Of a DNA stretch of 64,000 nt, positions 1-46,206 are shown one piece after another; the first letter of the stretch is position 1, and every line of letters starts with the position of its first letter. A program made the translations under genes and the position numbers. Source of the stretch: an uncultured Alphaproteobacteria bacterium (GTDB lineage Bacteria; Pseudomonadota; Alphaproteobacteria; UBA11222); the NCBI GenBank assembly GCA_947085465.1, contig CAMTWQ010000014.1, forward strand, positions 3,904-67,903. Reading direction: 5' to 3'. The notes under the pieces were generated by a model. It saw nothing but the letters and a program-made list of their open reading frames with translations. It was not told the DNA's origin and made no database searches.

Positions 1-73
1 CTATGTGAGCCGCATTTATGTAGCTCCCGCACGGGCCGCTCCGGTTCACGCCTATCTGAGATAGGCGCCCGGC

Positions 74-580
74 ATGTTTTTCAGCCGCATGCAAACCATC
101 GAGACCGCAGAAGGAAATGCCTCGTTTGTAAGCCGTACAGAGGTATGGAAATTGGGTTGGGAATATGTGCAGGCGCACCCGGTGTTTGGCGGCGGCGCCG
201 GACTTTATGAGCGGATATTCAAAATAGCCTCTCACAACAGCTATCTTGAAGTATTGGGGGAGATGGGTTTTCCCGGATTTGCAATGTGGCTGCTCATTGC
301 CTTTTATGCATTTGCGCTTACATTCCGGATCCGCCGCCTGTCCCGGGGCATTGTGGATTTGAGATGGGCGTATGATCTGGGGTACTATGCTCAACTGACA
401 TTTATCGGGTATTTTGTGGGTGGGCTCTTAAAAAATCATGGGCTGTTTGAGTATTATTATATGCTGATTGGCATTCTTATGGGAACTGAGACTGCAGTCC
501 GGAACTATCTAATTTCAAAAGTGTTGGAAGTGGATCACCTGGCGTCTACATCCCCGATGAAAAGGCTGGCCCAGGGCTAG
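74..580 (+). CDS. O-antigen ligase (Wzy_C/WaaL-like) family protein, C-terminal portion only; possible fragment or split gene
   Basis: 168-aa ORF. The loop motif HPVFGGGAG...ASHNSYLEVLGEMGFPG followed by hydrophobic helices matches the distal loop and last TM helices of O-antigen ligases, which are normally over 400 aa. An in-frame TAG at 62-64 blocks upstream extension. Confidence 0.5.
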   Translation: MFFSRMQTIETAEGNASFVSRTEVWKLGWEYVQAHPVFGGGAGLYERIFKIASHNSYLEVLGEMGFPGFAMWLLIAFYAFALTFRIRRLSRGIVDLRWAYDLGYYAQLTFIGYFVGGLLKNHGLFEYYYMLIGILMGTETAVRNYLISKVLEVDHLASTSPMKRLAQG

Positions 581-606
581 CGCGCGATGATTTTAGGTTT
601 GCCCAT
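577..606. repeat. partial copy of hairpin-repeat family H (left arm only)
   Basis: ATGATTTTAGGTTTGCCCAT is identical to 21955-21974 in the full H element. It starts at the CTAG that contains the stop codon of the preceding ORF. Confidence 0.55.
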
Positions 607-726
607 GTCTGAGTGGCCCGACACATAGGTAACAGAACGTACCGGACACATAGGTTACACTTTTTGCTTGCCGAACCAAGCAGGAGGTGGGGATGCCGTA
701 AACTTCGGCATATAAAGGATCAGCCT

Positions 727-1587
727 ATGGTGCAGAAAGACACGTTGGGCGCGATTGGCGGGCTGTTCCGCTATCCGGTTAAATCGCTGCGCGGCGAGGC
801 GTTGAACGATGCGCATCTGAACGCATCAGGGGTGGCCGGTGACCGTCTCTGGGCGTTTCGCGATATTGCGCGGGATGAGATCACCAGCGCCAAACGAAGC
901 CCATTGCTGTTGCAAATTGCCGCAACCTTGCTGGATGATAGCGCCTCGCCGCGCGCAAAATTATCGCTTCCCACAGGTGAAATCATCCATACTGACACGC
1001 CGGATTGCAGCGCGATCATCTCAAAGTATACCGGCAGGCGGCTTTTGCTGTCCGCTTTACGGCCCGCATCCGATAAGGCGCATTTTGCGCGATCGAAAAC
1101 CGTGCCCGCAAACGCGGCCTCTGATGCAAGAGAGGTGCTGGGGCTACTGGCGGATGAGCCGTTTCCGGATTTCTCGAAAATGCCGCGCGAAGCGATGCTG
1201 AACGCCACCTTGCCAGGCACCTATTTCGATGCGGCGGCGATACATATCATTCTGGCGTCCGAATTGAAGCAATTACATAATTCTCTGCCAGGCGCGGGGG
1301 TGGATGCGATGCGGTTCCGTCCCAATATTGTGCTGAATGATCTGGAAAACCCGTTGTCAGCAGATGATCTTGTTGGCGTGCGGATAAAAATTGGGGCTGC
1401 CGTGCTAACCGGCGATGTACTTGTCCCACGCTGTTCCATGACCACCCATACGCAAGGCGCGCTTCCAAAAGCGCCGGAAATAATGCGCTGTCTGGTGCGC
1501 GATTGGAAACATAATTTCGGTGTTTACGCCTCGGTCATTCAGGCCGGCCAAATCCGCATGGGCGATCCAGTTTCACGCCTTAACTAG
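727..1587 (+). CDS. MOSC domain-containing protein (YcbX-like)
   Basis: N-terminal motif LFRYPVKSLRGEAL...GDRLWAF (MOSC_N), then RFRPNIVL and VPRCSMTT (MOSC). Start placed at the ATG at 727 where similarity begins; the track ORF starts at 613. Confidence 0.8.
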   Translation: MVQKDTLGAIGGLFRYPVKSLRGEALNDAHLNASGVAGDRLWAFRDIARDEITSAKRSPLLLQIAATLLDDSASPRAKLSLPTGEIIHTDTPDCSAIISKYTGRRLLLSALRPASDKAHFARSKTVPANAASDAREVLGLLADEPFPDFSKMPREAMLNATLPGTYFDAAAIHIILASELKQLHNSLPGAGVDAMRFRPNIVLNDLENPLSADDLVGVRIKIGAAVLTGDVLVPRCSMTTHTQGALPKAPEIMRCLVRDWKHNFGVYASVIQAGQIRMGDPVSRLN

Positions 1588-1722
1588 AGCAATCTGCATT
1601 AAGTTCGAGTCATGAGGCTCGAACTTAATAAAGAAAATTGCTCTAGATTTTAATGTGTTAGAGCAGCTTTCCGCGATTAAGTGGAGTCGCGAAGTGACTC
1701 CACTTAATCGCGGGCTGCTCTA
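1584..1722. repeat. composite hairpin repeat: unit B (1584-1646) + linker ATTTTAATGTGT + unit A (1659-1722)
   Basis: Two imperfect palindromes, each bounded by CTAGAGC...GCTCTA(G). The whole block recurs reverse-complemented at 11702-11840. Confidence 0.9.
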
Positions 1723-1745
1723 ATGCGGCCCAATGCGCGGCGGGG

Positions 1746-1775
1746 CTTGAAATCTGGCTGTTCGATCCTACATCT
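1746..1775 (+). promoter_or_regulatory. candidate RpoH (sigma-32)-type heat-shock promoter for the Hsp20 gene
   Basis: CTTGAAA, 14 nt, then CCTACATCT, about 95 nt upstream of the Hsp20 start. This resembles the CTTGAA-N13-17-CCCCATNT consensus only approximately. Confidence 0.3.
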
Positions 1776-1869
1776 TCCAGGTCAGCGCCCATCATGGGCT
1801 GGCGCGTGAACGGTTTGGCCATAAGGCGAACCGGTGATCACATGTCGCTTCTTCAGGAGGATGTGTCCT

Positions 1870-2334
1870 ATGCGTACACTTGATTTTTCCCCGCTTTTCC
1901 GTTCCACCGTCGGTTTTGACCGGCTTGCGTCCATGCTCGACACCGCCACCCGGCTGGACGAGCAAACTCCCGCTTACCCGCCCTATAACATTGAAAAGCT
2001 TGGCGATGACGCCTACCGCATTACCATGGCGGTGGCTGGCTTTGGGCATGAGGATTTAAGCGCCGAAGTGAACGGTAACATGTTAACCATCACCGGCAAA
2101 CATGAAACAGAGCAAGGCGAGGGAAAGAAATATCTGCACCACGGCATTGCCGCGCGCGCCTTTGAGCGGAAGTTTCAATTAGCCGATCATGTCAAGATCG
2201 TCAGCGCCGAGTTGAAACATGGCTTGCTTAATCTTGATCTGGCGCGTGAGATTCCCGAGGCGATGAAGCCGCGCCGTATCGAAATTCTGACCGGTGCGAA
2301 TGATCATAGCATCATCGAGGGCAAGGCGGCCTGA
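1870..2334 (+). CDS. small heat-shock protein, Hsp20/IbpA family
   Basis: MRTLDFSPLFRSTVGFDRL...PPYNIEKLGDDAYRITMAVAGF...LTITG is a typical alpha-crystallin domain of IbpA-like sHSPs. AGGAGG lies 9 nt upstream of the ATG at 1870. Confidence 0.9.
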   Translation: MRTLDFSPLFRSTVGFDRLASMLDTATRLDEQTPAYPPYNIEKLGDDAYRITMAVAGFGHEDLSAEVNGNMLTITGKHETEQGEGKKYLHHGIAARAFERKFQLADHVKIVSAELKHGLLNLDLAREIPEAMKPRRIEILTGANDHSIIEGKAA

Positions 2335-2355
2335 CCTCTGTTACTCTAACAAATT

Positions 2356-2389
2356 CCGGGCTGCTTGTGTAAGAGCGGCCCGGATTTTG
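2356..2389 (+). terminator. putative intrinsic terminator after the Hsp20 gene
   Basis: CCGGGCTGC, a 10-nt loop, then GCGGCCCGG, followed by ATTTT. Confidence 0.45.
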
Positions 2390-2403
2390 CGCGCCTTGAA
2401 GTA

Positions 2404-2778
2404 TCAGGCGGCGGCGGCGCTATTAAACATCGCCATATCGAAATAGTCACGCCAGGCTTTGATCTTGCCATTTTCCAGTTCGAACACACCGGCTACCGGC
2501 AGCGAGATTTTCTTGCCGTCTTTATTCGTGATATGATCAATGCGCTCATTCATAACGATATTGCCCGCCGCCGCCTGATAGCGGACTTCAAATTTGACGC
2601 CGGTCATATCGCGCATCATGGCCCCAAGCACCTTGCGCACACTGGCGATGCCTATTGCCGGACGCATGGGAATATTGTGATAGACGGCGTCCTCGGTAAA
2701 AAAGCCCGCCAGTTCTTCGGCGTTGAGCCGACCCCAGGCGTCAATAAAATTGTTGACGATTTGTTCGTTAGTGGCCAT
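2404..2778 (-). CDS. NTF2-fold protein, limonene-1,2-epoxide hydrolase/SnoaL-like
   Basis: MATNEQIVNNFIDAWGRLNAEELAGFFTEDAVYHNIPM...WRDYFD is the LEH/SnoaL pattern. Start at the ATG at 2778, preceded by GGGAGGCGG; the track ORF extends to 2973. Confidence 0.65.
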   Translation of the reverse strand: MATNEQIVNNFIDAWGRLNAEELAGFFTEDAVYHNIPMRPAIGIASVRKVLGAMMRDMTGVKFEVRYQAAAGNIVMNERIDHITNKDGKKISLPVAGVFELENGKIKAWRDYFDMAMFNSAAAA

Positions 2779-2833
2779 TGCCGCCTCCCTGTATGGATGA
2801 GTAGAACCCTTCTTCTTCCGACAGGCTAGCGCA

Positions 2834-3400
2834 TCAGCGGGGTGTAGGGAAGTTACCGTTTTCGCCCTCAGGATTAACGAATGGGGCAAATGACGCCACA
2901 CCGCGTACTTGCCGGTAATGATTAAGCGCCCAAATAACGCTTGGGAAGGCGATCTCACCCCAGGGAATGTCATCCCAGTCGAAAAACGCCACCTCCAGGC
3001 TTTCCACCCCAGCGCTGACTTCTGGTGAGCGCAGCCGCGCCTTGTAAATTAATTGCACCTGGCTGATGCGCGGAATGTTGTACACCGCAAGCAGCGACAG
3101 AATTTCGAGTTCGGCGTTGGCCTCCTCACGCGCCTCGCGCTGCGCGCCCTGCTCGGTTGTTTCGCCTTCCTCCATGAAACCTGCGGGCAAGGTCCAAAAC
3201 CCCCGACGCGGTTCAATGGCGCGCCGGCACATCAGAATTTTCCCCTCCCATTCAGTCACCGCGCCGACGACGATTTTCGGGTTTACATAGTTCACAAACC
3301 CACATCCGTTACAAACAAGACGATCCTTGTCATCGCCGTCAGGCTTGCGCAGTGCGAAATCAATGCCGGGGGATGGGGGATGGGGCGGGGGTTTGCTCAT
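2834..3400 (-). CDS. NUDIX hydrolase with N-terminal zinc-ribbon
   Basis: CNGCGFVNYVNP zinc ribbon and Nudix box GFMEEGETTEQGAQREAREEANA. Confidence 0.85.
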   Translation of the reverse strand: MSKPPPHPPSPGIDFALRKPDGDDKDRLVCNGCGFVNYVNPKIVVGAVTEWEGKILMCRRAIEPRRGFWTLPAGFMEEGETTEQGAQREAREEANAELEILSLLAVYNIPRISQVQLIYKARLRSPEVSAGVESLEVAFFDWDDIPWGEIAFPSVIWALNHYRQVRGVASFAPFVNPEGENGNFPTPR

Positions 3401-3573
3401 GGCGCAATTTTGCACAGAGTTTGGGCAAAGGTCTAGAATGCTTCTTAGGATGGTGTTTGGAGTTTTTCCATTGCGCCAGCCGCAGGATTAAATTTATGCT
3501 GCGCGGTCGAATGAGCAGGATATGGCCGGATAAGAAGAGACAATCTCGCCGGTTATTGTGTTACAGTTGGCAT

Positions 3574-3589
3574 GACGTTAAACAACGTC
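3574..3589. promoter_or_regulatory. palindrome GACGTTaaacAACGTC, candidate MarR operator
   Basis: Perfect 6+4+6 inverted repeat 34 nt upstream of the MarR start codon. Confidence 0.25.
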
Positions 3590-3622
3590 TACGGATAAAA
3601 TAAAGCGGGGGCGCACATCACC

Positions 3623-4144
3623 ATGACGACTGCAACAAAATCAAAAAAAACTGCATCCAAAACAACGGCGAAATGCACGGCAGGTGTTAAGCGGTCGGCG
3701 CCTGTACCCGTGTTGACAAGCTCTACAGGGCATTTGTTGCGCCGCGCTGAACAGCGGGCAATGAATATCTATACCCAAGAAGTTGGGGCGGGGGGATTAA
3801 CGCCGCGTCAATATGTGCTGCTCACCGCCGTTTTAACCTATGAAGGGCAAAATCAGTCTGATTTAGTGAGCGCCACCGGCATCGACCGCAGCACGCTGGC
3901 CGAAATGATTGCACGCATGCTCGAAGCAGGAATGTTAAGCCGCGAGAGAACCAAGGATGACGCGCGCGCCAATGCGGTGAAATTGACCGCCAGCGGACGG
4001 CGGGCGTTAGCAGCGGCGGCGGCAAAAATACGCAAGGCCGAGACCCGCACCATCGCGCCGCTACCCGTGAGCAAGCGGGCGGCCTTTCTCGACGCCTTGC
4101 GCATTCTCAGCGGCGATTCAGCAAAGCGGAAAAACTCCCGCTAG
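3623..4144 (+). CDS. MarR family transcriptional regulator
   Basis: GLTPRQYVLLTAV...QSDLVSATGIDRSTLAEMIARMLEAGMLSRERTKDDARANAVKLT is a winged-HTH MarR pattern. Confidence 0.85.
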   Translation: MTTATKSKKTASKTTAKCTAGVKRSAPVPVLTSSTGHLLRRAEQRAMNIYTQEVGAGGLTPRQYVLLTAVLTYEGQNQSDLVSATGIDRSTLAEMIARMLEAGMLSRERTKDDARANAVKLTASGRRALAAAAAKIRKAETRTIAPLPVSKRAAFLDALRILSGDSAKRKNSR

Positions 4145-4259
4145 ACCATTTCTTGATCGGATTGATTCAATCCGATCAGGATAAAAATGGTATAACACAT
4201 TCAATGAGAGCCTTTCTTGTCCGGTCAGGTTGCTTCAACCTGACCGGGAAAGGCTCTAA
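4141..4259. repeat. composite hairpin repeat: unit C (4142-4194) + linker + unit D (4206-4258)
   Basis: C is TAGACCATTTC.TGATCGGATTGA/TCAATCCGATCAGG..ATGGT.TA. D is GAGCCTTTCTT.CCGGTCAGGTTG/CAACCTGACCGG.AAAGGCTC. The same C-D block occurs at 12324-12445 (inverted) and at 41073-41186. Confidence 0.9.
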
Positions 4260-4642
4260 ACAATAATGTTCAGATGGCTGCCCGGCGGCGTAATACGCAG
4301 CCGGGCGTTCGGGTTAGGCGCTTCGCGGTGAGCGGCTGAATAGAGCGGGCGGGCGGGCGGGTTGGGTTTTGTTGCAATTTCACCAATAGTGGGGTTTACA
4401 ACGGAATTTGGCCTTTTCGCATCTTCAAGACTGCCCGTCTTGGAAGCTTGACGCGGCAAGCGCCCGTCATTGCGCGCCCCAATATCTTTTGGGGCAGAGG
4501 AAGCACGTTCACGCGCTGTTGTGCTAACGGGATTGGCGTCAGGGGAAAACGCGCGCCGGGCTTCCTCCTGGGAATATTGACTGCGCAATTGCGCCGCATA
4601 GGCCTGCGCCCCAATTAAACTGGATGGATGTACCGCCGCCAT
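4256..4642 (-). CDS. hypothetical protein, low-complexity (Ala/Pro/Arg/Ser-rich)
   Basis: Only the ORF track supports this. I recognise no motif. Its stop codon is the terminal TAG of repeat unit D. Confidence 0.35.
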   Translation of the reverse strand: MAAVHPSSLIGAQAYAAQLRSQYSQEEARRAFSPDANPVSTTARERASSAPKDIGARNDGRLPRQASKTGSLEDAKRPNSVVNPTIGEIATKPNPPARPLYSAAHREAPNPNARLRITPPGSHLNIIV

Positions 4643-4721
4643 CTCGCCACTTTATCCCGTAACAACATTGAATAGCGGTGAATATAGGCAGCGGGGCTTT
4701 CTCAATCGTTAAAGTCTTTGG

Positions 4722-5180
4722 TTAATCGAGCTGGCGCAACTGCATCTGTTCGGCGGCGGAAAGCGGTGCGGGATCAGGTGCTTGTCTCCTTTGCCGGTTG
4801 CTTGACCATATGGCTGCGCCGCCAATTGCCAGCAGTACGCCCGGCCCAAGCCATAATAGCCAGGTCGCGGCCCTGAACGGCGGGCGCATCAGCACCCAAT
4901 CCCCATAGCGCGCCACCACATAGGCGCGCACCTGGTCGTCATCGTCACCGTCCGCCACGCGATCACGGACAATTTGCCGCAGATCGCGGGCAAGGGACGC
5001 ATCGGAAATTTCGATCGACTGATTCTGACACACCAGGCAGCGCAAACCGTTCATAATCAAACGGGCGCGGGCCTCCTGGCTGGCGTCCGGCAGGGCGTTG
5101 GCGTCGACTGCAATAGCGCCAGCCGGATTGCTGGAAGCCAGCAAGAACACAGTTGCGAGAACAGATAATAGCCGTTTCAT
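4722..5180 (-). CDS. ccmH: cytochrome c-type biogenesis protein CcmH
   Basis: Signal peptide MKRLLSVLATVFLLASS and the LRCLVCQNQSI motif. Start at the ATG at 5180, overlapping the ccmG stop as ATGA. Confidence 0.85.
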   Translation of the reverse strand: MKRLLSVLATVFLLASSNPAGAIAVDANALPDASQEARARLIMNGLRCLVCQNQSIEISDASLARDLRQIVRDRVADGDDDDQVRAYVVARYGDWVLMRPPFRAATWLLWLGPGVLLAIGGAAIWSSNRQRRQAPDPAPLSAAEQMQLRQLD

Positions 5181-5707
5181 TGTTTCGCGCGCTGAATGGC
5201 GGGAAGAATTTTTCCGGTTAAATCCTCCGGATACATCGGCCCTACATGTTTGAGTACAATCCGCCCCGCGCCATCGACAATGAAGGTTTCCGGTATCCCA
5301 TAGACGCCCCATTCGATCGACACCCGCCCCATCTGGTCCACCCCCACGGCGTGATAAGGATCGCCAAGCCCGGCCAAGAATTTTAGCGCATTCGCCTCTG
5401 TGTCCTTATGGTTGATGCCGATCATGCGAACACCGCCCATTTGCGCCAATTGCATCAATTGCGGATGCTCGGCCCGGCATGGGCCGCACCAGGACGCCCA
5501 CACATTGACCAGGGTAACCTGGCCTTTGGCCAGATCGGCGGCAATAAGGCCCGGCTCCTTACCCGGCAATGGCGGTAAATCCGCTGTTGGCGCCTGTTGT
5601 CCGATCAGCGCAGAGGGAATAAGGCGCGGGTTAAGCCCAAGGCCAACGAACAGAGCGATGCACAGTACAATGAACAGGCCGAGCGGTATCAGGCTGCGCC
5701 AGGTCAT
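5177..5707 (-). CDS. ccmG: thiol:disulfide oxidoreductase CcmG/DsbE
   Basis: WASWCGPC thioredoxin motif, N-terminal TM anchor, and position within the ccm operon. Confidence 0.9.
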   Translation of the reverse strand: MTWRSLIPLGLFIVLCIALFVGLGLNPRLIPSALIGQQAPTADLPPLPGKEPGLIAADLAKGQVTLVNVWASWCGPCRAEHPQLMQLAQMGGVRMIGINHKDTEANALKFLAGLGDPYHAVGVDQMGRVSIEWGVYGIPETFIVDGAGRIVLKHVGPMYPEDLTGKILPAIQRAKQ

Positions 5708-7716
5708 GGTGAGATAGCCACTTGGCCTGCAATAGAGATCGGGGGGCTAGAAACAGGCGCAGCGCGGCGTGGTGCGCCTACCCGGTGCCGCCTGTCGGAA
5801 AGACTGATTGCGCCGCCCAGCGCCATCAGAATTACGCCTGCCCATATCCATGCTTGCAGCGGCCTAAAATACAGCCGGGTTGACCACTGGTTTTCGCCCA
5901 GCGGGTCGCCGATCACGGCAAACAGATCACCGGCCAGTGTGGGATAAATCGCCGCCTCGGTCGTATCCATCGGCGGCGTGGGATAAGTGCGGGACTCAGG
6001 CGATAGAGACACAAAGTGTTCGCCGTTTCGGGTGACTTCGAAATGTCCGCGAAGCGCCATGTAATTGGGTCCAGGCGCCTGTTCGGCGCCGTCAAAGCGG
6101 TATGTATACGCCCCAACCGTGACGCTTTCGCCTGGCCGCATCAGGGTGATTTTTTCGGTCGTCCAGGCGGTGCTGGCGGTGATGCCGAGCACCACAATAC
6201 CCATGCCCCCATGCGCCATCATCGCGCCCCAACTGGCGCGGGGCACGCCCTTGGCGCGTTCCCAGCTAATGCGGGCAGAGGCCCGGAACAGCTTCACCCG
6301 CTCAGCGCCATCGGTAAGCGCGCCGCCGATCATCCATACGCCAAGGCCAATGCCAAACGCCGCAAGCACCGGCCCGCCGCGCATCACGTACCAGGCAGCG
6401 AGCGTACCCATCACAGCCAGCCCAAAAGCAAAGCGCAGCCGGGCAAGCACGCCCGGCAAATCGCCACGCTTCCACGCCATCAATGGCCCAAGCGGCATCA
6501 GTAGCAGCAGTGGAATCATCAGCGGCGCAAAGGTTGCATTATAATAAGGCGGGCCAACCGTTAGTTTGGTCTCACCGCCGCTGATTGCATCCACAAACAG
6601 CGGGTATAGGGTGCCAAGCAACACCGTGGCGCAGGCCGTCGCCAACAGCCAGTTATTCAGCACCAGCGCCGCTTCCCGGCTGATCGGCGCGAACAGCCCG
6701 CCACCCTTCATGACTGGCGCGCGCACGGCGTAGAGCATCAATGAACCGCCAACCACCAGGCATAGAAACGCCAGAATATATACCCCCCGCGCTGGATCGG
6801 TGGCGAACGCATGCACTGACGTGAGCACCCCGGAACGCACAATAAATGTGCCAAGCAGGCTCAGTGAAAATGTCAGTATCGCCAGCAATATGGTCCAGCT
6901 TTTAAGCGCGTCGCGCCGCTCGACCACAATCGCTGAATGCAGCAATGCGGTGCCCGCCAGCCAGGGCATGAACGAGGCGTTCTCGACCGGATCCCAAAAC
7001 CACCAGCCGCCCCAGCCAAGTTCGTAATACGCCCACCAGGAACCCATGGCGATGCCGATAGTGAGAAAGCACCAGGCGGCCAAAGTCCATGGCCGCACCC
7101 AGCGCGCCCATGCGGCGTCCACGCGGCCCTCGATCAGCGCGGCGACCGCAAACGAAAACGCCATCGAAAAACCGACATATCCCAGATAAAGAAACGGCGG
7201 ATGAAAGGCGAGGCCTGGATCCTGCAACAGCGGATTTAAGCCATTGCCTTCAAGCGGCGGCGGGATCAGCCGCGCGAACGGATTGGAAGTCAGCAGGGTG
7301 AACAGCAGAAAACCGACCGCTATCATCGCCTGCACGCTCAGCACCCGTGCCTGTAACGCCTGCGGCAGATTGCCGCCAAATAGCGCCACCGCCGCGCCGA
7401 ACAGCGCCAAAATCACCACCCAGAGCAACAGGCTGCCTTCGTGATTTCCCCATACGCCCGCGATCTTGTACAGCATTGGCTTGGCGGTGTGCGAATTGGT
7501 GGCCACCACGCTAAGCGAGAAATCCGACACCACAAAGCTGTAGGTAAGTGCGGCGAATGCAATAAGTAAAAATATTAACTGGCCAAGCGCGGCTGGGCGC
7601 GCCACCGCCATCAGCCGCGCTTCACCGCGCGCAGCGCCAATCAATGGCGCAATAGCCTGCGCCAGCGCCAGCATCAACGCCAGCGTCAGGGCGAAATGGC
7701 CCAGTTCAGCGATCAT
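5704..7716 (-). CDS. ccmF: cytochrome c heme lyase subunit CcmF
   Basis: [14 protein letters not shown] tryptophan-rich motif and a polytopic membrane protein of about 670 aa. Start at MIAELGHF (7716), overlapping the ccmE stop as ATGA. Confidence 0.9.
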
Positions 7717-8168
7717 TTTGCTTTTTCCATTGCGCCACCCTTCCATTGGCCGGATTTTTTCAACGCCTCGGCAACCTCGGCCGGCATGTAGTTTTCATCG
7801 TGCTTGGCCAGCACCTGGGTGGCGGTAAATACGCCATCTTCACCCAGCGCGCCCTCCGCCACCACGCCCTGCCCCTCCCGGAACATATCCGGCAACAGAC
7901 CCCGGTAACGCACCGGCAGGCTTGCCGTCAAATCGGTGACGCTGAACGTCACGCTGACTCCATCAGCGCTGCGCCGCACCGAACCCTCGCTCACCAGACC
8001 GCCAATGCGGAAAGTACGCCCGGGCGGCAATTGCTTGCTGGCCAGTTCCGAGGGCGTATAGAAAAACACCAGGGTGTCGCGCAGCGCAAACAGCACCAGC
8101 GCCGCCGCCGCGCCAAGTAAAATCATGGCGGCAGTGATCGTCAGCAGACGGCGCTGTTTGCGGGTCAT
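7713..8168 (-). CDS. ccmE: cytochrome c maturation heme chaperone CcmE
   Basis: N-terminal TM anchor and the [11 protein letters not shown] heme-binding histidine motif. Confidence 0.9.
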
Positions 8169-8320
8169 TGGGGGATGTCTTCCAGTTTCGCCAATAGCTG
8201 CCGCTTGTGGCGAAGCGAAGATATACTGGCCGCCGCCAGCGCCAGCAGCAGTACAAACGCCGCGCCCCAGGCGGACCAGACAAAGGCGCCATACCCGCCC
8301 ATGGCGAAAAATTCCATCAT
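8165..8320 (-). CDS. ccmD: heme exporter protein CcmD
   Basis: Not in the ORF track because it is under 60 aa. Hand translation gives [51 protein letters not shown]: one TM helix plus a basic tail. It lies between ccmC and ccmE with ATGA overlaps at both ends. Confidence 0.75.
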
Positions 8321-9069
8321 AATTGCGCCTGCGGCCGGCTGGCGTGGGTGCGGTTGATACGCAAAGTACGCACCCGGCGCTCCAATATTTCGCTGCGCAT
8401 GCGGATCAGCAACAGCCAGATATACAATAGGGTGAACCCGGCCCCCATCAGCAGCAGCGGCAGCAGGATCGAACCATGAATGGATGGGCCATCAAGGCGT
8501 ACAACACTTGCCGGTTGATGCAGGGTATTCCACCAATCGACGGAAAATTTGATCACCGGGATATTCACAGCGCCCGCCAGCGCAATTATCGCCGCCGCCT
8601 TTGCCGCGCGCACCGGCTCATCAATGGCGTACCACAGCGCGATATAACCAAGATAAAGAAAAAACATAATCAGCACGGATGTCAGCCGCGCATCCCATAC
8701 CCACCACGCGCCCCACATGGGTTTGCCCCATAGTGATCCGGTAATGAGTGCGATAAGTGTAAATACCGCGCCGATGGGCGCGCTCGCCTTAGCGCACAGG
8801 TGGGCTAGCGGGTGCTTCCAGATCAGGCCGGCGGCGCTGGACAGGGCCATCACCCCATAACAGAACATCGCCATCCAGGCGGCCGGCACATGCACAAACA
8901 TAATTCGCACGGTTTCGCCCTGCTGATAATCGGCGGGCGCCACCACCAGGCCAAGATACGCCCCAAGGCCAAGCAGAATAGCCGTCAGGCCAGCCATCCA
9001 TGGGGATAGCCTGGCGGCAAGGGCGTAAAATCTGGCCGGATTGGCATAGGTTTGGATGGGGCGCTGCAT
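8317..9069 (-). CDS. ccmC: heme exporter protein CcmC
   Basis: [13 protein letters not shown] tryptophan-rich motif in a six-TM protein. Start at [11 protein letters not shown] (9069); the track ORF extends to 9150. Confidence 0.85.
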
Positions 9070-9195
9070 GGGGCATTGTTTAGAGCATATCGGGCCGGAA
9101 GGGAACTGGCGGCAAGCGGCTGTCGGCAAGCGGCTCGACAAGCTTCCCAAAACGGCTAAGCTGAGGGGTGATAAAACATAGGGGAGACGCAGGAC

Positions 9196-10068
9196 ATGGC
9201 GAAAAAAGTTTGGATCGAGGTGGCGTTAAACGGCGCCCAAACCCGCAAACAGCAACCCAATGTGCCCGTAACCGCAGAGGAACTGATCGCCGACGGGATT
9301 AAATGCGTTGAGGCTGGCGCATCGATTCTGCATCTGCATGCGCATGATGCGGTTACCGGAAAACAAAATGACGATCCGGATGTTTATGCCGCCATTCTGC
9401 TGGGCATTAGGGCAAAAACAGACGCTGTTGTCTATCCCACGATGCCGATCCATCTGTATCCCGGATGGAGCGACCGCTATCAAAGCGCCGCTGAACTGGG
9501 CCGGCGCGGCCTGCTGGAATGGGCGGTGGTGGATCCAGGATCGCTCAACCTGAATGGTTATGACAATAAGACCAAGCAATTGCGCGGGCGCGGCGTGGTG
9601 TATGTGAATACGGATGCGGAAATCCGGCGCGGCATGGAACTGTCGCAGCAATATGGCTTTCATGCGGAATATGCGTGTTTCGAGCCGGGCTTTGTGCGGC
9701 TTGGCGCCGCCATGCACCGCGCTTATCCCAAGGCGCCGATGCCGATTTACAGTTTCCGATTTGCAGAGAACCTGACCCTGGGTCTGCCGCCTGAGGAATG
9801 GGCGCTTGATACGTATCTGAAACTGCTGGAGCTGGAGGCGCCCGGCGCGCCCTGGATGGCGGCCAGCATGAGCGGCAATATTACAAAGCTCATCCCCGCC
9901 ATTGTGGCGCGCGGTGGCCATGTGCGCACCGGGCTGGAAGACGCGCCCGCCGGATCAAGCGCTACCAATGTTGATTTAGTGAATGAATGCGTACGCGCCA
10001 TCCGCGCCGCCGGGGGTGAACCGGCGGCGGGAACCGATGTGCGCGCGGCGCTTAAGAAATATGCCTAA
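9196..10068 (+). CDS. 3-keto-5-aminohexanoate cleavage enzyme family (BKACE/DUF849) protein
   Basis: VWIEVALNGA...PVTAEELIADGIKCVEAGASILHLHAHD is the typical BKACE N-terminus. Confidence 0.75.
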   Translation: MAKKVWIEVALNGAQTRKQQPNVPVTAEELIADGIKCVEAGASILHLHAHDAVTGKQNDDPDVYAAILLGIRAKTDAVVYPTMPIHLYPGWSDRYQSAAELGRRGLLEWAVVDPGSLNLNGYDNKTKQLRGRGVVYVNTDAEIRRGMELSQQYGFHAEYACFEPGFVRLGAAMHRAYPKAPMPIYSFRFAENLTLGLPPEEWALDTYLKLLELEAPGAPWMAASMSGNITKLIPAIVARGGHVRTGLEDAPAGSSATNVDLVNECVRAIRAAGGEPAAGTDVRAALKKYA

Positions 10069-10673
10069 GCGGCGACTTTAATGCTACGCGCTTCGCCAAA
10101 TGCCGGACGGCCAAGGCAGCGGGCGAGCCATGCGCTCGCATTAGGCGTGGCCGACAGATCAAACTTCGCCATTTGCAGCCAGGACAGCACGCCGGCGACA
10201 TTAAGATCGGCGATGCTGAACTCGGAGCCGAGCAGATATTCCTTGCCGGCCAGCGCGCCATCCAGCACCTTCATCGCTGCTGCCAGTTTGGTGTTGGCCG
10301 CCGCCACTTCGGCGTCCGTGATAGCCGGATTCATCCGTTTCATCAGCAAGGTGAGCGCAGCGCCCTCGGTTTCGGTCATCGCCCAAAAGCTCCATTGCAG
10401 GGCGCGGCCCTCGTCCGCCTGATTTTTTGGCTGCAACTTGCCGCCATACTTTTTCGAAAGATAAAGATTGATGGCCAGGGATTCACACATGATCAGGCCG
10501 TCATCGTTGATGGCTGGAACATGCCCGTTGGGGTTGATTTTCAGAAACTCCGGCTTGCGCGAGCCGCCCTGGTTGTCCACTGGCTCCAACTTGAAATCGA
10601 TGCCCAGCTCTTTCACCAGCCACAAGACGCGCAGCGCGCGCGATTGCGGAATCCCATATATTGTGAGCGCCAT
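10065..10673 (-). CDS. glutathione S-transferase
   Basis: MALTIYGIPQSRALRVLWLVKELGI...NPNGHVPAINDDGLIMCESLAINLYL is the GST N-domain. Its stop overlaps the convergent BKACE stop (CTAA). Confidence 0.85.
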   Translation of the reverse strand: MALTIYGIPQSRALRVLWLVKELGIDFKLEPVDNQGGSRKPEFLKINPNGHVPAINDDGLIMCESLAINLYLSKKYGGKLQPKNQADEGRALQWSFWAMTETEGAALTLLMKRMNPAITDAEVAAANTKLAAAMKVLDGALAGKEYLLGSEFSIADLNVAGVLSWLQMAKFDLSATPNASAWLARCLGRPAFGEARSIKVAA

Positions 10674-10816
10674 TTTTTTCTCCCTGCTGTTTTTGGCAAT
10701 CCAAGATCGGATGCCGCATCATTTCAGTCCCCGTGCCAGATGTCCATGGGGGAGCTTGAGGGTCAGGCTTGATATTACATGACTAATCTGTAAAAAATAG
10801 AGGCCGCAGCCTTGCC

Positions 10817-11704
10817 ATGGGGTCAACGATGAGCACAGCTAATATTCCAATAGTCACCGCGTTTTTTGATACGGACAGCTTCACATTCAGTTATGTGGCG
10901 GCGGATCCGGCAAGCAAGAGCTGCGCGCTGATCGATACGGTGCTGGATTTCAATCAGGCGTCGGGCAGGGTATCGCATGCCTGCGCAGACAAGATCATCG
11001 CCCATGTGCGCGGCCTGGGGCTGCGCGTGGACTGGATATTGGAAACCCATGTGCATGCGGATCATCTTTCGGCGGCCGCTTATTTGCAGCAGCAACTGGG
11101 CGGCAGGCTGGCTATTGGCGCCAGGGTCAGCATCGTTCAGGAAGTCTTTGGCAAACTGTTCAATTGCGGGCCGGAGTTTGCCCGTGACGGACGGCAGTTC
11201 GATCAACTGTTCACGGATGAAGAACTATTCATGGTTGGCGGAATACAGGCGCGTGCTATGTATACGCCAGGACACACGCCTGCCTGCATGAGCTATGTGA
11301 TCGGCGACGCCGTATTTGTTGGCGACACCTTGTTCATGCCCGACTATGGCACGGCGCGTTGCGACTTCCCAGGCGGCGATGCGCGGCAGCTTTATCGCTC
11401 GATTCAAAAACTGTTCGAAATACCCGCGCATAGGCGCCTGTTCCTGTGCCATGATTACAAGGCGCCGGGACGTGATTATTTTCAGTGTGAAACCACCATT
11501 GCGGAACAGCGGGCCAACAATGTGCATCTGCATGACGGGATCGGCGAAGATGAATTTACCGCCATGCGCACAGCCCGCGATAAGACCCTCGACATGCCGC
11601 GCCTGATCCTGCCTTCGGTGCAGGTGAATATGCGCGCCGGCCAAATGCCGCCGCCGGAAAATAACGGCATCGCCTATCTGAAACTTCCGCTCAATTCGTT
11701 TTAG
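10817..11704 (+). CDS. MBL-fold metallo-hydrolase (persulfide-dioxygenase/glyoxalase-II-like)
   Basis: ETHVHADHLSAA metal motif and YTPGHTPACMSYV. An alternative start is the ATG at 10829. Confidence 0.8.
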   Translation: MGSTMSTANIPIVTAFFDTDSFTFSYVAADPASKSCALIDTVLDFNQASGRVSHACADKIIAHVRGLGLRVDWILETHVHADHLSAAAYLQQQLGGRLAIGARVSIVQEVFGKLFNCGPEFARDGRQFDQLFTDEELFMVGGIQARAMYTPGHTPACMSYVIGDAVFVGDTLFMPDYGTARCDFPGGDARQLYRSIQKLFEIPAHRRLFLCHDYKAPGRDYFQCETTIAEQRANNVHLHDGIGEDEFTAMRTARDKTLDMPRLILPSVQVNMRAGQMPPPENNGIAYLKLPLNSF

Positions 11705-11840
11705 AGCAGCCCGCGATTAAGTGGAGTAACGAAGTGCCCCCACTTAACCGCGGAAAGCTGCTCTAACACATTAAAATCTAGAGCAATTTTCTTTATTAAG
11801 TTCGAGCCTCATGGCTCGAACTTAATGCAGATTGCTCTAG
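11702..11840. repeat. composite hairpin repeat A (11702-11765) + linker + B (11778-11840), inverse of 1584-1722
   Basis: Near-exact reverse complement of the B-A block at 1584-1722. The first TAG is the stop codon of the MBL gene. Confidence 0.9.
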
Positions 11841-11884
11841 AGGCCATGGGCGGAAATGTCGCTGCGAGTCAGACCGAATGTGGT

Positions 11885-11960
<76 letters not shown>

Positions 11961-11988
11961 ATTTGGTTAAGCGTATCTATTACAGCAA

Positions 11989-12306
11989 TTATGCGGCAAC
12001 GTCGATGCGCGCTGGTGAACGGCTTTTACACGGGCGAACGATGATTTCCACATTCTGGCCTAACGCGGTTAGCGCCTGCATCAAACGCTCAAGCGAAATT
12101 CCCCTCAGTCTGTAGTTTCTGATTGCTGATACTTTTGGTTGCGGTATGCCCAGCAGCGCCGCCGCCTTGTTCTGGCTAAGACTGCGGCGATCAATAATAG
12201 CGTTGATTTTAACTGCCAGAAGCGCCTTGGCCGTTAGTTCCTCAGCGTCAGAAAATCCAAGATCAATCAGGACATTGTCCGTAGCGGGACGTTTACTGCG
12301 AGACAT
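11989..12306 (-). CDS. XRE-family HTH protein (HTH_37-type, antitoxin-like)
   Basis: NVLIDLGFSDAEELTAKALLAVKINAII...LSQNKAAALLGIPQPKVSAI...SLERLMQALTALGQNVEIIV matches the HigA-like XRE antitoxin pattern. Start at the ATG at 12306; the alternative ATG at 12324 lies inside repeat D. Confidence 0.7.
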   Translation of the reverse strand: MSRSKRPATDNVLIDLGFSDAEELTAKALLAVKINAIIDRRSLSQNKAAALLGIPQPKVSAIRNYRLRGISLERLMQALTALGQNVEIIVRPCKSRSPARIDVAA

Positions 12307-12323
12307 ACTCCTAGCTCCTGTCA

Positions 12324-12445
12324 TAGAGCCTTTCTTACCCGGTCAGGTTGAACCAACCTGACCGGATAAGAAAGGCTCTAAGTGAATGTGTTAGACCATT
12401 TTTATCCTGATCGGATTGATTCAATCCGATCAGGAAATGGTCTAG
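12324..12445. repeat. composite hairpin repeat D (12324-12380) + linker + C (12392-12445)
   Basis: Inverted copy of the C-D block at 4141-4259. Confidence 0.9.
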
Positions 12446-12479
12446 AGTTAAGCGAGCCGCAAAAACCCGCCCCCGCATC

Positions 12480-13466
12480 TCATATATAAGGGTCACTTGC
12501 CAGCAAGTAATTCTGCACATAATCCGTGACGCCATCTTCAAGTTCCGTTAACGGACGATTATAACCAATCTGGCGCAGCCGCGATATGTCGGCCTGGGTA
12601 AAATACTGGTAATTACTGCGGATTTCTGGAGGCGTATCCACATATTCGATGCGCGGCGTCACATTCATCGCAGCAAACACCGCTTTCGCAAGATCAGAAA
12701 AACTGCGCGCCTTGCCGGTGCCGACATTAAAAATGCCTTTGTAACTTCCTTGCTCAAGCAGCCACACAACCAGGCCGGCGCAATCTTTCACCGAGACGAA
12801 ATCGCGCAACTGTCCGCCATCTGGGTAATCGGGATGATGTGATTTGAAAAGTTTAACCGTTTCGCCCTTGCGAACAGTGTCAACGATCTGGCAGGCGACA
12901 GAACGCATTTCGTCTTTGTGATATTCATTCGGCCCATAAACATTGAAAAATTTTAGGCCTGCCCAGGCCAGAGGCGCCGGACGGCCATCGGCAATCTGGC
13001 GCGCGGCGCGCCGGTCAAATGCATGCTTGCTCCATCCATAGGCGTTAAGCGGGCGCAGTTTCTCCAGCGCAGCGGGCGTGCACTCATCGCTAAACCCGGC
13101 GCTGCCATCGCCATAGGTGGCGGCGCTTGAGGCATAGATATATGGCGTGCCGGATTTTGTGCACCAGTTCCACAAATCGGTGGACAACCGGAAATTGGCC
13201 GCAACGATCTTGTCCACGTCACGCTCGGTGGTGCTTGAGATCGCTCCCATGTGAATAACGCTTTCGATGCGAAGCCGGTTATGTTCGAGATAATCGAATA
13301 GCCCTTCCAGGCGGATGATGTCGTGAATTTCGTGGTGCGCGATATTACGCCATTTGTCTGACACGCCAAACCAGTCGCAGACAACGATTTCGCGCCGGCC
13401 GCTTTTCGCCAGCGCGGCAACGATATTAGAACCGATGAACCCGGCTCCTCCGGTAACGATGATCAT
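12480..13466 (-). CDS. hldD: ADP-L-glycero-D-manno-heptose 6-epimerase
   Basis: MIIVTGGAGFIGSN Rossmann start, about 328 aa, and adjacent to hldE. Confidence 0.88.
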   Translation of the reverse strand: MIIVTGGAGFIGSNIVAALAKSGRREIVVCDWFGVSDKWRNIAHHEIHDIIRLEGLFDYLEHNRLRIESVIHMGAISSTTERDVDKIVAANFRLSTDLWNWCTKSGTPYIYASSAATYGDGSAGFSDECTPAALEKLRPLNAYGWSKHAFDRRAARQIADGRPAPLAWAGLKFFNVYGPNEYHKDEMRSVACQIVDTVRKGETVKLFKSHHPDYPDGGQLRDFVSVKDCAGLVVWLLEQGSYKGIFNVGTGKARSFSDLAKAVFAAMNVTPRIEYVDTPPEIRSNYQYFTQADISRLRQIGYNRPLTELEDGVTDYVQNYLLASDPYI

Positions 13467-13524
13467 GTTGTCACTCCGTCTCGCTTGTCCCTGGGACAGG
13501 CAGGCCGATCCCGGGGGGAGGTAG

Positions 13525-14985: not shown

Positions 14986-15036
14986 GTGCAGCCTGTATTT
15001 ATCCGGTGCGCCCGCTTAGCGCAATGCGTGCTGGGG

Positions 15037-15789
15037 TCAGGTTTGCAGCAGCCAGCGTTCCTTACCCTGTAACCCAAGGCAGGTGAGTTTGCCAGTGGCA
15101 AAGGCGCCTGTATCGATACCGATCCGGTTTGGTTTCATCTCTACCTCGCGCCGGACAGAGTGGCCATGCACTACCACGGCGCCGAAGTTTTTTTCACTAT
15201 CAAGGAAAGGCCCGCGAATCCAGATCAGATCATTCTGATCCTGTTCTTCAAGTGGAACCCCTGGCATCACGCCTGCATGGGTAAAAAAATAGTGGCCCAC
15301 CCGGTGATAGCGCCGCAAGCCGGTCAGGAACAGCATTTCTTGCGGCGTTAGGGCGTCACGCAATTGGGCTGCGGCTTCTATCATGTGCTCCGGCGTTGAA
15401 AATTCAGAGGGCGGTTCAACCCCGAAGCTACGAAGCGCCTCGGCGCCACCCCAGCTAAGCCAGTTAGCGCCGCCTGCTGGATTATCCAGAAAGTCGAGCA
15501 TTAGGGCTTCGTGATTCCCAATCAAATGCAGTTTTTCAAACCCATGCGGCGTTTCACCGCCGGCAAGCGCAAGCACTTTACGGCTATCCGCGCCGCGATC
15601 AACATAATCGCCAAGATATATAAGCTGGTTGTGAGCGGGCCCCCGCGCAGCCGCATCTTGTGCGATCATTTCATGCAGGCGCTCAAGCAGGCCAGCACAG
15701 CCATGAATGTCGCCAATGGCGTAGATTCTCTTGCCCGGCGGGACATAGGCGGCGGGAGGCTTTCTTCTATGGATGGGCCAGCGTTTCAT
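15037..15789 (-). CDS. metallophosphoesterase, serine/threonine phosphatase (PrpA/ApaH-like)
   Basis: IYAIGDIHG, LGDYVDRG, GNHE and VHGH calcineurin-like motifs. The track ORF begins at the TTG at 15822; I prefer the ATG at 15789. Confidence 0.8.
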   Translation of the reverse strand: MKRWPIHRRKPPAAYVPPGKRIYAIGDIHGCAGLLERLHEMIAQDAAARGPAHNQLIYLGDYVDRGADSRKVLALAGGETPHGFEKLHLIGNHEALMLDFLDNPAGGANWLSWGGAEALRSFGVEPPSEFSTPEHMIEAAAQLRDALTPQEMLFLTGLRRYHRVGHYFFTHAGVMPGVPLEEQDQNDLIWIRGPFLDSEKNFGAVVVHGHSVRREVEMKPNRIGIDTGAFATGKLTCLGLQGKERWLLQT

Positions 15790-15860
15790 GAGCCGCTGAA
15801 TATAGTCATTTAAGTTAACCAATTTCTATCTTTTTTCAAAATCCGGGGAATTTTAACCAT

Positions 15861-17165: not shown

Positions 17166-17186
17166 ATCATCCATCCTGGGTATTTC

Positions 17187-18816: not shown

Positions 18817-18818
18817 GG

Positions 18819-18883
18819 CTAGAGCATGTTCCGATCAGATTGAATCGCCGACGGCAATTCAATCTGATCGGAACATGCTCTAG
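18819..18883. repeat. hairpin repeat unit G
   Basis: CTAGAGCATGTTCCGATCAGATTGAAT, a loop, then ATTCAATCTGATCGGAACATGCTCTAG: a perfect 27-bp stem. The right-hand TAG is the stop codon of the TadE-like gene. Confidence 0.9.
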
Positions 18884-19443: not shown

Positions 19444-19457
19444 TCCAGCTATCCCGT

Positions 19458-21896: not shown

Positions 21897-21946
21897 TTTG
21901 GCGCGCATCCAAACTACTGCGGAATAAGTTTAGATAGAGTAGCCTC

Positions 21947-22118
21947 AGAGCGGTATGATTTTAGGTTTGCCCATACCACTACCCCGGTCTGTCACCCCGG
22001 ATTTATTCCGGGGTCCAGGAGTAACAAGCATAAGCTTTTATTTGCAACCCTGGACCCCGCAACGAGTGCGGGGTGACATTGTGGGTTGGGCGATTCAACC
22101 TAAAATCATCGCCCTCTA
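21947..22118. repeat. complex nested inverted repeat, family H
   Basis: The outer arms share GATGATTTTAGGTT / AACCTAAAATCATC within AGAGCGG...CCCTCT termini. Inside are the inverted pairs GTCACCCCGG/GCGGGGTGAC and GGGGTCCAGG/CCTGGACCCC. The terminal CTA is the stop (TAG) of the minus-strand gene. Confidence 0.85.
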
Positions 22119-27707: not shown

Positions 27708-27878
27708 ATGCTAAAGCCGCGAACCTGGCTGTTGATTGCCGCGCTGAATGTCCTGCTTGCGGTTGCAGCGGGGGCGTTCGGAGCGCACGGGCTTGAGGGG
27801 CGCGCGCCGCCCGCTGATTTGGCGGTGTTTCGCACCGCCGCCCAGTATCACATGTACCACGCCCTAGAGCGTTTTTAG
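27708..27878 (+). pseudogene. DUF423 (YgdD/TMEM256-like) membrane protein gene, truncated after about 53 codons by the repeat cluster
   Basis: Hand translation gives MLKPRTWLLIAALNVLLAVAAGAFGAHGLEGRAPPADLAVFRTAAQYHMYHAL then ERF-stop. The GAFGAHGL...YHxxHAL pattern is the N-terminal half of DUF423 proteins (about 120 aa). Similarity ends exactly at CTAGAGC of repeat F, and no C-terminal half follows. Confidence 0.7.
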
Positions 27879-28109
27879 GAAAACCCGGACCGGGTTTTCC
27901 GGCCAGAAACGTGGCCAGATATAAAACTAGAGCATTTTCAGCCCATTTCAAAACGCTCTGGCTTTTATTCACCCGCATTTCTTGGCGCCTTCGCGGAGTC
28001 ACGTGACTCCGCGAAGGCTGAAAATGCTCTAGATTTTAATGTGTTAGAGCAGCTTTCCGCGATTAAGTGGGGGCACTTCGTTACTCCACTTAATCGCGGG
28101 CTGCTCTAG
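27864..28109. repeat. mosaic hairpin-repeat cluster: unit F (27864-27930) + unit E with 46-nt arm insert (27927-28032) + linker ATTTTAATGTGT + unit A (28045-28109)
   Basis: The F-E part recurs inverted at 39327-39496. The A part matches 1659-1722, 11702-11765 and 46031-46095. Confidence 0.9.
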
Positions 28110-39178: not shown

Positions 39179-39326
39179 ACATGCCCCCGCACTTGCCAGT
39201 CAAATATCACGGACCGGCAATTATTATAATAGTTGTTGGTGACTGTTGCTGATTTTTTCCGGTTTGGCCAGCGTAATTATTTAATACTACGAACTTGCAA
39301 AGCAAGTATTTGTGAGCAGATTTTAT

Positions 39327-39496
39327 CTAGAGCATTTTCAGCCTTCACGGAGTCACGTGACTCCGCGTTGGCGCCAAGAAATGCGGTTGAATAATAGCCA
39401 GAGCGTTTTGAAATCGGCTGAAAATGCTCTAATTTTATATCTGGCCGCGTTTCTGGCCGGAAAACCCGGTCCGGGTTTTCCTATAAACGTTCTAGC
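39327..39496. repeat. mosaic hairpin repeat: unit E with arm insert (39327-39431) + unit F (39428-39496), inverse of 27864-28032
   Basis: Reverse complement of the F-E block in the 27864 cluster with a few substitutions. Confidence 0.9.
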
Positions 39497-39504
39497 GTCG
39501 CGCG

Positions 39505-41072: not shown

Positions 41073-41186
41073 TAGACCATTTCCTGATCGGATTGAATCA
41101 ATCCGATCAGGAAATGGTCTAACACATTTATTTTAGAGCCTTTCTTATCCGGTCAGGTTGGTGCAACCTGACCTGGAAAGGCTCTA
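41073..41186. repeat. composite hairpin repeat C (41073-41121, perfect 24+1+24 palindrome) + linker + D (41134-41186)
   Basis: Third copy of the C-D block. The terminal CTA is the TAG stop of the CoA-transferase gene. Confidence 0.9.
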
Positions 41187-42371: not shown

Positions 42372-42401
42372 GTTGCTCTCCTTTTCAAATAGGCAAGATT
42401 A

Positions 42402-43595: not shown

Positions 43596-43612
43596 CGAAA
43601 TTTATTCCCATC

Positions 43613-46030: not shown

Positions 46031-46095
46031 CTAGAGCAGCTTTCCGCGATTAAGTGGGGTCACGAAGTGACGCCACTTAATCGCGGGCTGCTCTA
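46031..46095. repeat. hairpin repeat unit A, solitary copy
   Basis: CTAGAGCAGCTTTCCGCGATTAAGTGG...CCACTTAATCGCGGGCTGCTCTA with its own apical variant GTCAC-GAA-GTGAC. Confidence 0.9.
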
Positions 46096-46206
46096 TATTT
46101 TGGGTGTATATTATTTACCCGCCGACGATCAAGCAACATTGCGGTAACGATTAATTTAAGTTCACTGACCATTGTGGCCGTAAAATCATTGGATGGGGAA
46201 CTCTTA

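Follow-up and report, generated by a model that had tools for sequence, protein, structure and literature searches.

TAG stop codons at the ends of palindromic repeats in an uncultured alphaproteobacterium: probable insertion of small mobile elements at TA

Background

The CcrM-associated intergenic repeats (CIRs) of Caulobacter and other Alphaproteobacteria are approximately 110 nt long and consist of two inverted-repeat arms and a linker, with GANTC near the terminal loop; in a 2008 review their mobility is described as unexplained, and neither a TA junction nor the sharing of stop codons is mentioned there (PMC2229807). In Brucella, the palindromic intergenic repeats Bru-RS1 and Bru-RS2 (103-106 bp) are preferred sites of IS711 (PMC3163539, PMC10800456), an insertion sequence (IS) of the IS5 family that duplicates TA at YTAR (Y, pyrimidine; R, purine) and favours the Bru-RS repeats (PMC2266754, PMC3163539). 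Repetitive extragenic palindromic (REP) sequences of the GTAG type measure 20-40 bp, carry the GTAG unpaired at one end and occur in association with RAYT transposases; their termini often give TAG stops, so that repeat ends acting as stop codons are already known for this class (PMC3733652). Bacterial miniature transposable elements with inverted repeats (MITEs) that duplicate TA include RUP, with IS630-Spn1, and Correia/NEMIS (PMC2229807). Here we describe palindromic repeat units whose ends serve as TAG stop codons in a stretch of 64,000 nt (hereafter the window) of an uncultured alphaproteobacterium (UBA11222; contig CAMTWQ010000014.1), in particular the two-unit mosaic at 4141-4259, which lies between a MarR-family regulator gene and a convergent hypothetical gene.

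The units are non-coding, palindromic, near-perfect hairpins of 49-104 nt whose ends, TA-GAGC...GCTC-TA, are perfect inverted repeats, and their predicted stability ranges from -31 to -51 kcal/mol per unit. Types A to H, lettered as in an earlier note on this DNA, differ inside and have the ends in common; the ends of type C are TAGACC/GGTCTA. Pairs of units are often connected by a conserved linker, GATTTTAATGTGT (reverse complement ACACATTAAAATC; core AATGTGT/ACACATT), in mosaics that span 114-138 nt (A-linker-B at 1585-1722 and 11702-11839; C-linker-D at 4142-4258, 12324-12444 and 41073-41186). The window has eleven arrays of units (table 1). An ungapped inverted-repeat detector missed bulged units and a fold-based detector was used instead; its weak 'units' in locus L029 and one over a tRNA were spurious and were discarded.

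Compared by description and not by the CIR or Bru-RS sequences themselves, the window repeats probably belong to a CIR-type family. Like CIRs, the mosaics are intergenic, have two hairpin arms and a linker, measure about 110-140 nt, carry GANTC near the loops and have an alphaproteobacterial spread that includes Brucellaceae. Unlike CIRs, the units are also found solitary, several types (A-H) combine, and some copies lack GANTC. The density of this CcrM methylation motif is 8.8 per kb in the arrays and 1.67 per kb overall, a difference of about 5-fold; it lies 0-8 nt from the hairpin centre in every C unit, in E and in some of the A and B units, and within 12 nt of the unit centre in 17 of 37 units of other loci. 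Loop-adjacent examples are found at 4164-4168, 12418-12422, 41095-41099, 18842-18846 and 1684-1688, and in some F units too. The repeats resemble GTAG REPs in being short palindromes near genes, but in the window units the TAG is within paired, symmetrical ends on both sides, and either end can be the stop. With MITEs and IS711 they share a small non-coding body, terminal inverted repeats, a TA target and a TA on both flanks, IS711 having the same YTAR preference (PMC2229807, PMC2266754); in contrast to MITEs, the units are entire hairpins of 49-64 nt, much smaller than most MITEs, and form mosaics with a conserved linker. Intergenic mosaics of several palindromic unit types with conserved linkers are also a feature of the bacterial interspersed mosaic elements (BIMEs) of E. 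coli and the rhizobial intergenic mosaic elements (RIMEs), from which the window repeats differ in their end motifs, the RIME having been compared without its sequences.

The interval 4141-4259 and its repeat-free counterparts

The units are probably small non-coding mobile palindromes that insert at TA and duplicate it, and the sharing of TAG is then a side effect of transposition and not a new termination signal. The interval 4141-4259 has the order CGC-TAGACC...(C unit)...GGTATA-ACACATTCAATG-AGAGCC...(D unit)...GGCTCTA-AAC, and its two ends terminate the MarR gene, whose start codon is uncertain (3623 or 3761), and the convergent gene. On this reading, the C-D mosaic would have duplicated a TA that the two convergent stops had in common, given each gene a TAG of its own and pushed the genes apart.

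Six contigs of relatives (an NCBI metagenome-assembled genome, groundwater and other metagenomes), with MarR proteins 71-72% identical to that of the window, are repeat-free at this site and keep the synteny of MarR, a convergent 109-aa gene, ccmH, ccmG and ccmF. All six read ...CG-TTAA-AC...; both genes stop with TAA and overlap by 4 nt, the central TA being common to them. The window reads CGC-TA[GACC...GCTC]TA-AACAAT, with a TA on either side of the mosaic. The MarR orthologues end ...GGR-TAA, and the convergent protein, which ends in LNIIV in the window, is flush with the LNIVV of the 109-aa orthologues (L040, L041, L044).

Two further sites gave the same picture. The orthologues of CoA-transferase 1 with 89% and 84% identity end in VVLGQ and VVQGS, followed by TAA at the same codon and no repeat, and the window protein ends in VVLGA with TAG. 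Without the array and one of its TAs, the window flanks GCG-TA[...]TA-AAAG would read GCG-TAA-AAG. For the TadE-like gene, a 70% relative (L054) has ATC-TAG at the same codon, in a CTAG context and without a unit, as predicted from the window flanks GGC-TA[...]TA-G, and the C-termini are flush (RTPG and RTAI). The earlier note had proposed comparing repeat-free orthologues for the ancestral stop and for a target-site duplication. A single TA is present at the empty sites (TTAA in L040-L046, TAA in L050 and L053, CTAG in L054) and a TA on each side of the arrays in the window. The ancestral stop proved to lie at the same codon, as TAG only for TadE and as TAA for MarR, the convergent gene and the CoA-transferase. 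Thus, at three sites and for four genes, the position of the stop appears to be ancestral, and its type matches what deletion of the array and one TA predicts. TAA became TAG in three of the four genes compared because the element starts with G after the duplicated TA.

The same unit types are found elsewhere in relatives, one such locus (L017) coming from the same metagenome as the empty site L044, and copies are 88-96% identical across samples. Baikal-deep-G66, D_bin4, Kiloniellaceae, a Rhizobiales isolate and two Pseudochrobactrum species have the pattern of linker plus termini. No match came from a BLAST comparison of the H element and the A-B mosaic with 72,556 plasmids (PLSDB), nor from an exact B-unit probe against one genome per species, and searches for a protein identical to the window MarR, from either start codon, found no record.

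Coincidence of unit ends with stop codons

The earlier note listed eight TAG stops at unit ends, and all of its coordinates were correct: four are on the plus strand (578-580, 1585-1587, 4142-4144 and 11702-11704) and four on the minus strand, read as CTA on the plus strand (4256-4258, 18880-18882, 22116-22118 and 41184-41186). Each is made up of a unit's terminal TA and G (in TAGAGC or TAGACC, or in its reverse complement). Its three stops just outside repeats were also found, TAG at 18814 (3 nt away), TAA at 28117 (8 nt) and TAG at 39505 (9 nt). Pfam identified the flanking open reading frames (ORFs) as Wzy_C, MOSC, MarR, Lactamase_B, TadE and CoA_transf_3; the 226-aa ORF at 22116-22796 has no Pfam match and is backed by the in-house coding score (54-55) alone.

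In order to measure the coincidence, ORFs of at least 100 codons closed at each outer array terminus were counted against those in the two other frames there. In the window, 8 of 22 outer termini close such an ORF, compared with 1 of 44 control frames (Fisher p=4e-4); 8 of 47 termini and 4 of 94 controls do so at independent loci taken from other genomes and metagenomes, and the two sets combined give p=3e-5. The seven long ORFs of the independent loci are all Pfam-positive (ABC-2 permease, CcmB, FliI-type ATPase, TauD, LysR, DUF934 and cupin). At one of these loci (L039, 3082-3142) a solitary B unit stops two convergent genes, encoding the ABC-2 permease and CcmB, and the flanks imply an ancestral shared CTAG, which would make it a second, independent instance of the situation at 4141-4259.

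No TGA stop abutted by a unit was found in the window, and a unit lies at most 60 nt downstream of 12 of 38 TAA/TAG genes and of 1 of 26 TGA genes (p=0.01). Stop usage in the window is 26 TGA, 21 TAG and 18 TAA. The TAG share of 32% seems unusually high; repeat junctions account for 8 of the 21 TAG stops, and TAG falls to 13 of 57 once these are removed. CTAG is among the rarest four-base palindromes of the window, with 57 copies, of which 16 are inside arrays (the array count being read from a list).

Target preference and a model of insertion

The base before the left TA is a pyrimidine at 23 of 27 outer ends (C 18, T 5, A 4, G 0; p=3e-4), and the base after the right TA is a purine at 23 of 28 (G 17, A 6, T 4, C 1; p=9e-4). 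Among 24 inferred targets, nine are CTAG, nine CTAA/TTAG and six other, and 18 conform to YTAR. The earlier suggestion that insertion is targeted, with stop codons as the main tolerated targets, was essentially right, except that the target is TA in YTAR and not CTAG or TAG, and that part of the TAG comes from the element itself. A purine beyond the far array end had also been considered as independent proof of ancestral stops; this argument was downgraded, since the YTAR preference alone predicts it.

In the proposed mechanism a unit, alone or as a linker-joined pair, would integrate at a TA, preferably within YTAR, leaving a TA on each side. As the element continues with G after the TA, both junctions would read TAG towards the element. 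TAR is TAA or TAG by definition, and therefore any TAA or TAG stop preceded by a pyrimidine is a YTAR target. Insertion into such a stop would spare the protein and so survive, the gene that was hit keeping its exact C-terminus with a stop that becomes or remains TAG. In-frame TAR is absent inside genes, and most other intergenic TAs are in promoter or leader regions. Where the stops of convergent genes overlap and share one TA (as TTAA, CTAA or CTAG), its duplication would leave each gene a TAG of its own and separate the two. TA duplication and the leading G thus make the exclusive link to TAG-ending genes automatic.

A stop-codon TA is occupied by seven of the eleven window arrays. In the window without repeats, 32 of the 285 non-coding TA sites (11%) and 17 of the 71 non-coding YTAR sites (24%) are on a stop codon, and the excess has p=5e-5 against the uniform-TA null and p=0.006 against the YTAR null. 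The window is at the high end, the rate at termini of other loci being about 17%. As this wider-sample rate is near the YTAR expectation, target preference and neutrality may suffice, and active stop-codon targeting is not claimed. Beside the observed empty and filled sites, flush C-termini, flank preference and statistical excess, we infer that neutrality, and not active targeting, is behind the excess over YTAR availability. The mover would be a DDE transposase that duplicates TA, either of the IS5/IS427 group, like IS711, or IS630/Tc1-like. A CTAG/TA habit is also known for IS630.

B units aligned over four lineages have an invariant outer 9 bp, compensatory substitutions in 12 of the 28 pairs of the inner stem, and a conserved TTT bulge on the linker side. 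The combination of invariant ends and a covarying stem speaks for a sequence-specific end, putatively recognised by a protein, and for a need to stay palindromic, which could act at the level of DNA or RNA.

Several points weigh against insertion with TA duplication. The excess over the YTAR null (p=0.006) is based on eleven arrays in a window picked post hoc. The comparison genomes have 65-89% protein identity, so their empty sites are inferred ancestral states and not strain-level polymorphisms, and in the sole near-identical strain (96%) the TadE site is occupied too. In L054 the 19-nt spacer between the TadE and ABC-2 stops (661-679) holds CCTGATCG, identical to part of the arm of a C/E unit, and the spacer could be what is left of a unit, the site then not having been empty throughout. 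A parent IS, looked for as two TAGAGC-type ends at a distance of 400-3000 nt, was found neither in the window nor in 39 loci (L001-L039), and there was no transposase among the 20 window ORFs put through Pfam or in the loci used for comparison. Compensatory change along the whole stem exceeds what a transposase-binding inverted repeat alone would need. Some of the flanking C and G could come from the palindrome and not from the target, and a true duplication of TA cannot be told apart from the non-duplicating insertion of an element that bears one TA.

Alternative explanations

The last point is the basis of an unlikely alternative, in which the units are REP-like and a tyrosine (HUH) transposase of the RAYT or IS200/IS605 type moves them in the form of single-stranded hairpins. 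Insertion would then occur 3' of YTA without duplication, the second TA being that of the element, and the outcome is the same as that of TA duplication at the sites examined. The units are whole-length hairpins and not long elements with short inverted repeats; their invariant outer 9 bp, covarying inner stem and linker-side TTT bulge agree with this route, as do the resemblance of the linker mosaics to E. coli BIMEs and the report of GTAG REPs as suppliers of TAG stops (PMC3733652). However, the units lack an unpaired GTAG or CGTC tag: both conserved ends are base-paired and symmetrical, and the motif that comes nearest is the GT-TAG of the linker junction. The units exceed the 20-40 bp given for REPs, and a palindromic YTAR preference on both flanks is typical of DDE transposition of the IS711 or IS630 type (PMC2266754). 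No RAYT gene is present among the 20 Pfam-scanned window ORFs, a systematic RAYT search not having been made. The earlier note had offered a second idea, that the units are positioned by selection for a stable hairpin whose start is exactly the stop codon, with a role in protecting the 3' end, defining the transcript end or releasing the ribosome. The units are indeed very stable, their stems have been kept through compensatory change across lineages (the 12 of 28 pairs above), the window shows an excess over the null of YTAR availability, and REP-type hairpins stabilise upstream mRNA (background cited in PMC3733652). Such selection is not needed, since the TA junction fully accounts for the exact register, and we regard it as quite improbable: the orthologous genes of relatives have no hairpin, some units are found upstream of gene starts or between divergent genes (12324, the left end of 41073, and 46032), and none abuts a TGA stop. 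A terminating ribosome would also be expected to melt a hairpin that starts at the stop codon, and upkeep of palindromy at the DNA level is possible as well.

The units are not classical intrinsic terminators either, as the earlier note had recognised: of 28 terminator-like sites (hairpin plus T-run) in 1-20000 none is on an array, and by eye, the only means used for arrays past 20000, no T-run was seen in the flanks beside arrays, except TTTT in the A-to-B linker. There remains accidental truncation, in which units hit gene 3' ends at TAY or other codons in frame, so that shortened proteins now end at the TAG of the element. Any in-frame insertion at TA would make TAG, and the length of the MarR C-terminus varies among relatives; even so, this account is very improbable. 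The convergent protein, CoA-transferase 1 and TadE are flush with their repeat-free orthologues at the C-terminus, so that the differing C-termini named in the earlier note as a sign of truncation were not seen, the window MarR is longer than its closest relatives, and the base past the far end of the array gives TA plus a purine, a stop and not Tyr, in seven of seven window cases.

If the units are TA-inserting elements, the striking regularity at stop codons is explained without a new termination signal, and the filled and empty sites are direct evidence on how old, widespread alphaproteobacterial two-arm repeats insert, an open point in the 2008 review (PMC2229807). For annotation, a large share of TAG stops in such genomes would be repeat junctions, stop usage would be skewed by a mobile element, and convergent genes that formerly overlapped would now be split by a hairpin array. 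Insertion mechanisms should also be ruled out before hairpins at stop codons are called selected regulatory structures. A broader proposal is tentative and on present evidence rather doubtful: that CIR/Bru-RS-type two-arm repeats are, as a class, TA-duplicating miniature transposons with a YTAR target that colonise stop codons across Alphaproteobacteria, converting TAA to TAG, separating overlapping convergent genes and placing CcrM-methylatable hairpins at gene ends. Were it true, methylatable hairpins at gene ends could couple the behaviour of mRNA 3' ends to the cell cycle.

Other repeats of the window

The link to Bru-RS is only suggestive. A two-arm copy from Pseudochrobactrum (Brucellaceae) is 105 nt long, which agrees with the size of Bru-RS1/2, and the P. 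asaccharolyticum copy (L009, 6587-6735) matches Rfam RF02600 (BASRCI27, the Brucella small RNA CI27) below threshold, with 26.5 against 59.8 bits (E=4e-4). The RF02600 consensus has two hairpins, with TAAAGC-type ends unlike the TAGAGC of the window units. CI27 may be a transcribed copy of the repeat family found here. In an Rfam search of the window, tRNA was the only match at the gathering threshold, and units gave generic matches to miRNA-precursor hairpins at the E-value threshold.

Table 1. Positions of the repeat arrays in the window and of the features of the interval 4141-4259
Feature	Position	Strand	Remarks
Partial H-type head	578..606		TAG 578-580 stops an ORF, a Wzy_C fragment
A-linker-B mosaic	1585..1722		TAG 1585-1587 stops the MOSC gene; flanks imply ancestral AAC-TAA-TG
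MarR-family regulator gene	3623..4144	+	Pfam MarR; TAG stop 4142-4144 formed by the apparently duplicated TA and the first G of the C unit
C-type palindromic unit	4142..4194		Starts TAGACC, right end decayed to GGTATA; GATTC (GANTC) in loop
Linker between C and D units	4195..4205		ACACATTCAATG type; same linker at 41122-41133, reversed at 12381-12391
D-type palindromic unit	4206..4258		Left T lost, ends GGCTCTA; final CTA serves the minus-strand gene as its TAG stop
Convergent hypothetical gene, 128 aa	4256..4642	-	Upstream of ccmH-ccmG-ccmF homologues; stop from repeat end; no Pfam match, syntenic orthologues
B-linker-A mosaic (reverse of 1585-1722)	11702..11839		TAG 11702-11704 stops the metallo-beta-lactamase (MBL)-fold hydrolase gene; tRNA-Thr 45 nt beyond
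D-linker-C mosaic	12324..12444		Between an epimerase gene (TGA stop, 35 nt off) and the start of an HTH_37 gene; neither end a stop
E-type single unit	18820..18882		Flanked by the convergent ABC-2 permease and TadE genes; TadE stops at CTA 18880-18882
H-type long element	21946..22118		Left end decayed to CAGAGC; 226-aa gene stops at CTA 22116-22118
G-F-linker-B array	27865..28108		Stop of a CobS-family gene, TAA 28117-28119, 8 nt beyond
F-G array	39328..39495		Between two MFS transporter paralogues; TAG stop 39505-39507, 9 nt beyond
C-linker-D mosaic, near-perfect	41073..41186		CTA 41184-41186 stops CoA-transferase 1
Solitary B unit	46032..46095		Region between gene starts; stop of no supported gene

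Within the partial H head, the ATG at 604-606 is a possible in-frame start of MOSC; if this is the true start, a single repeat fragment holds the stop of one gene and the start of the next. The mosaic at 12324-12444 is probably inside an operon of the epimerase and HTH_37 genes. The end of its D unit is 18 nt upstream of the likely HTH_37 ATG (12306), just before an AGGAG ribosome-binding site; the unit was rejected as the source of the start codon, as it is the downstream ATG at 12306 that has the AGGAG. Short ORFs at 27708-27878 (56 aa) and 46077-46448 (123 aa, without a Pfam match) enter a unit and terminate within it; possible readings are spurious ORFs, or genes prolonged into a repeat that inserted in another frame.

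At the TadE site, the 96%-identical strain (L047, 741-770; L048, 815-844) has a 30-nt unit in place of the 63-nt E unit. Its left arm is C-like and its right arm E-like, and both ends have shifted together from TAGAGC/GCTCTA to TAGACC/GGTCTA, which suggests an internal deletion or a recombination between unit types.

Tandem paralogues lie beside two of the arrays. The MFS transporter genes at 37841-40815, with the F-G array between them, have a period of 1637 nt, and three family III CoA-transferase genes (41184-44815) are repeated with a period of approximately 1.2 kb; the C-D mosaic at 41073-41186 separates the two groups.

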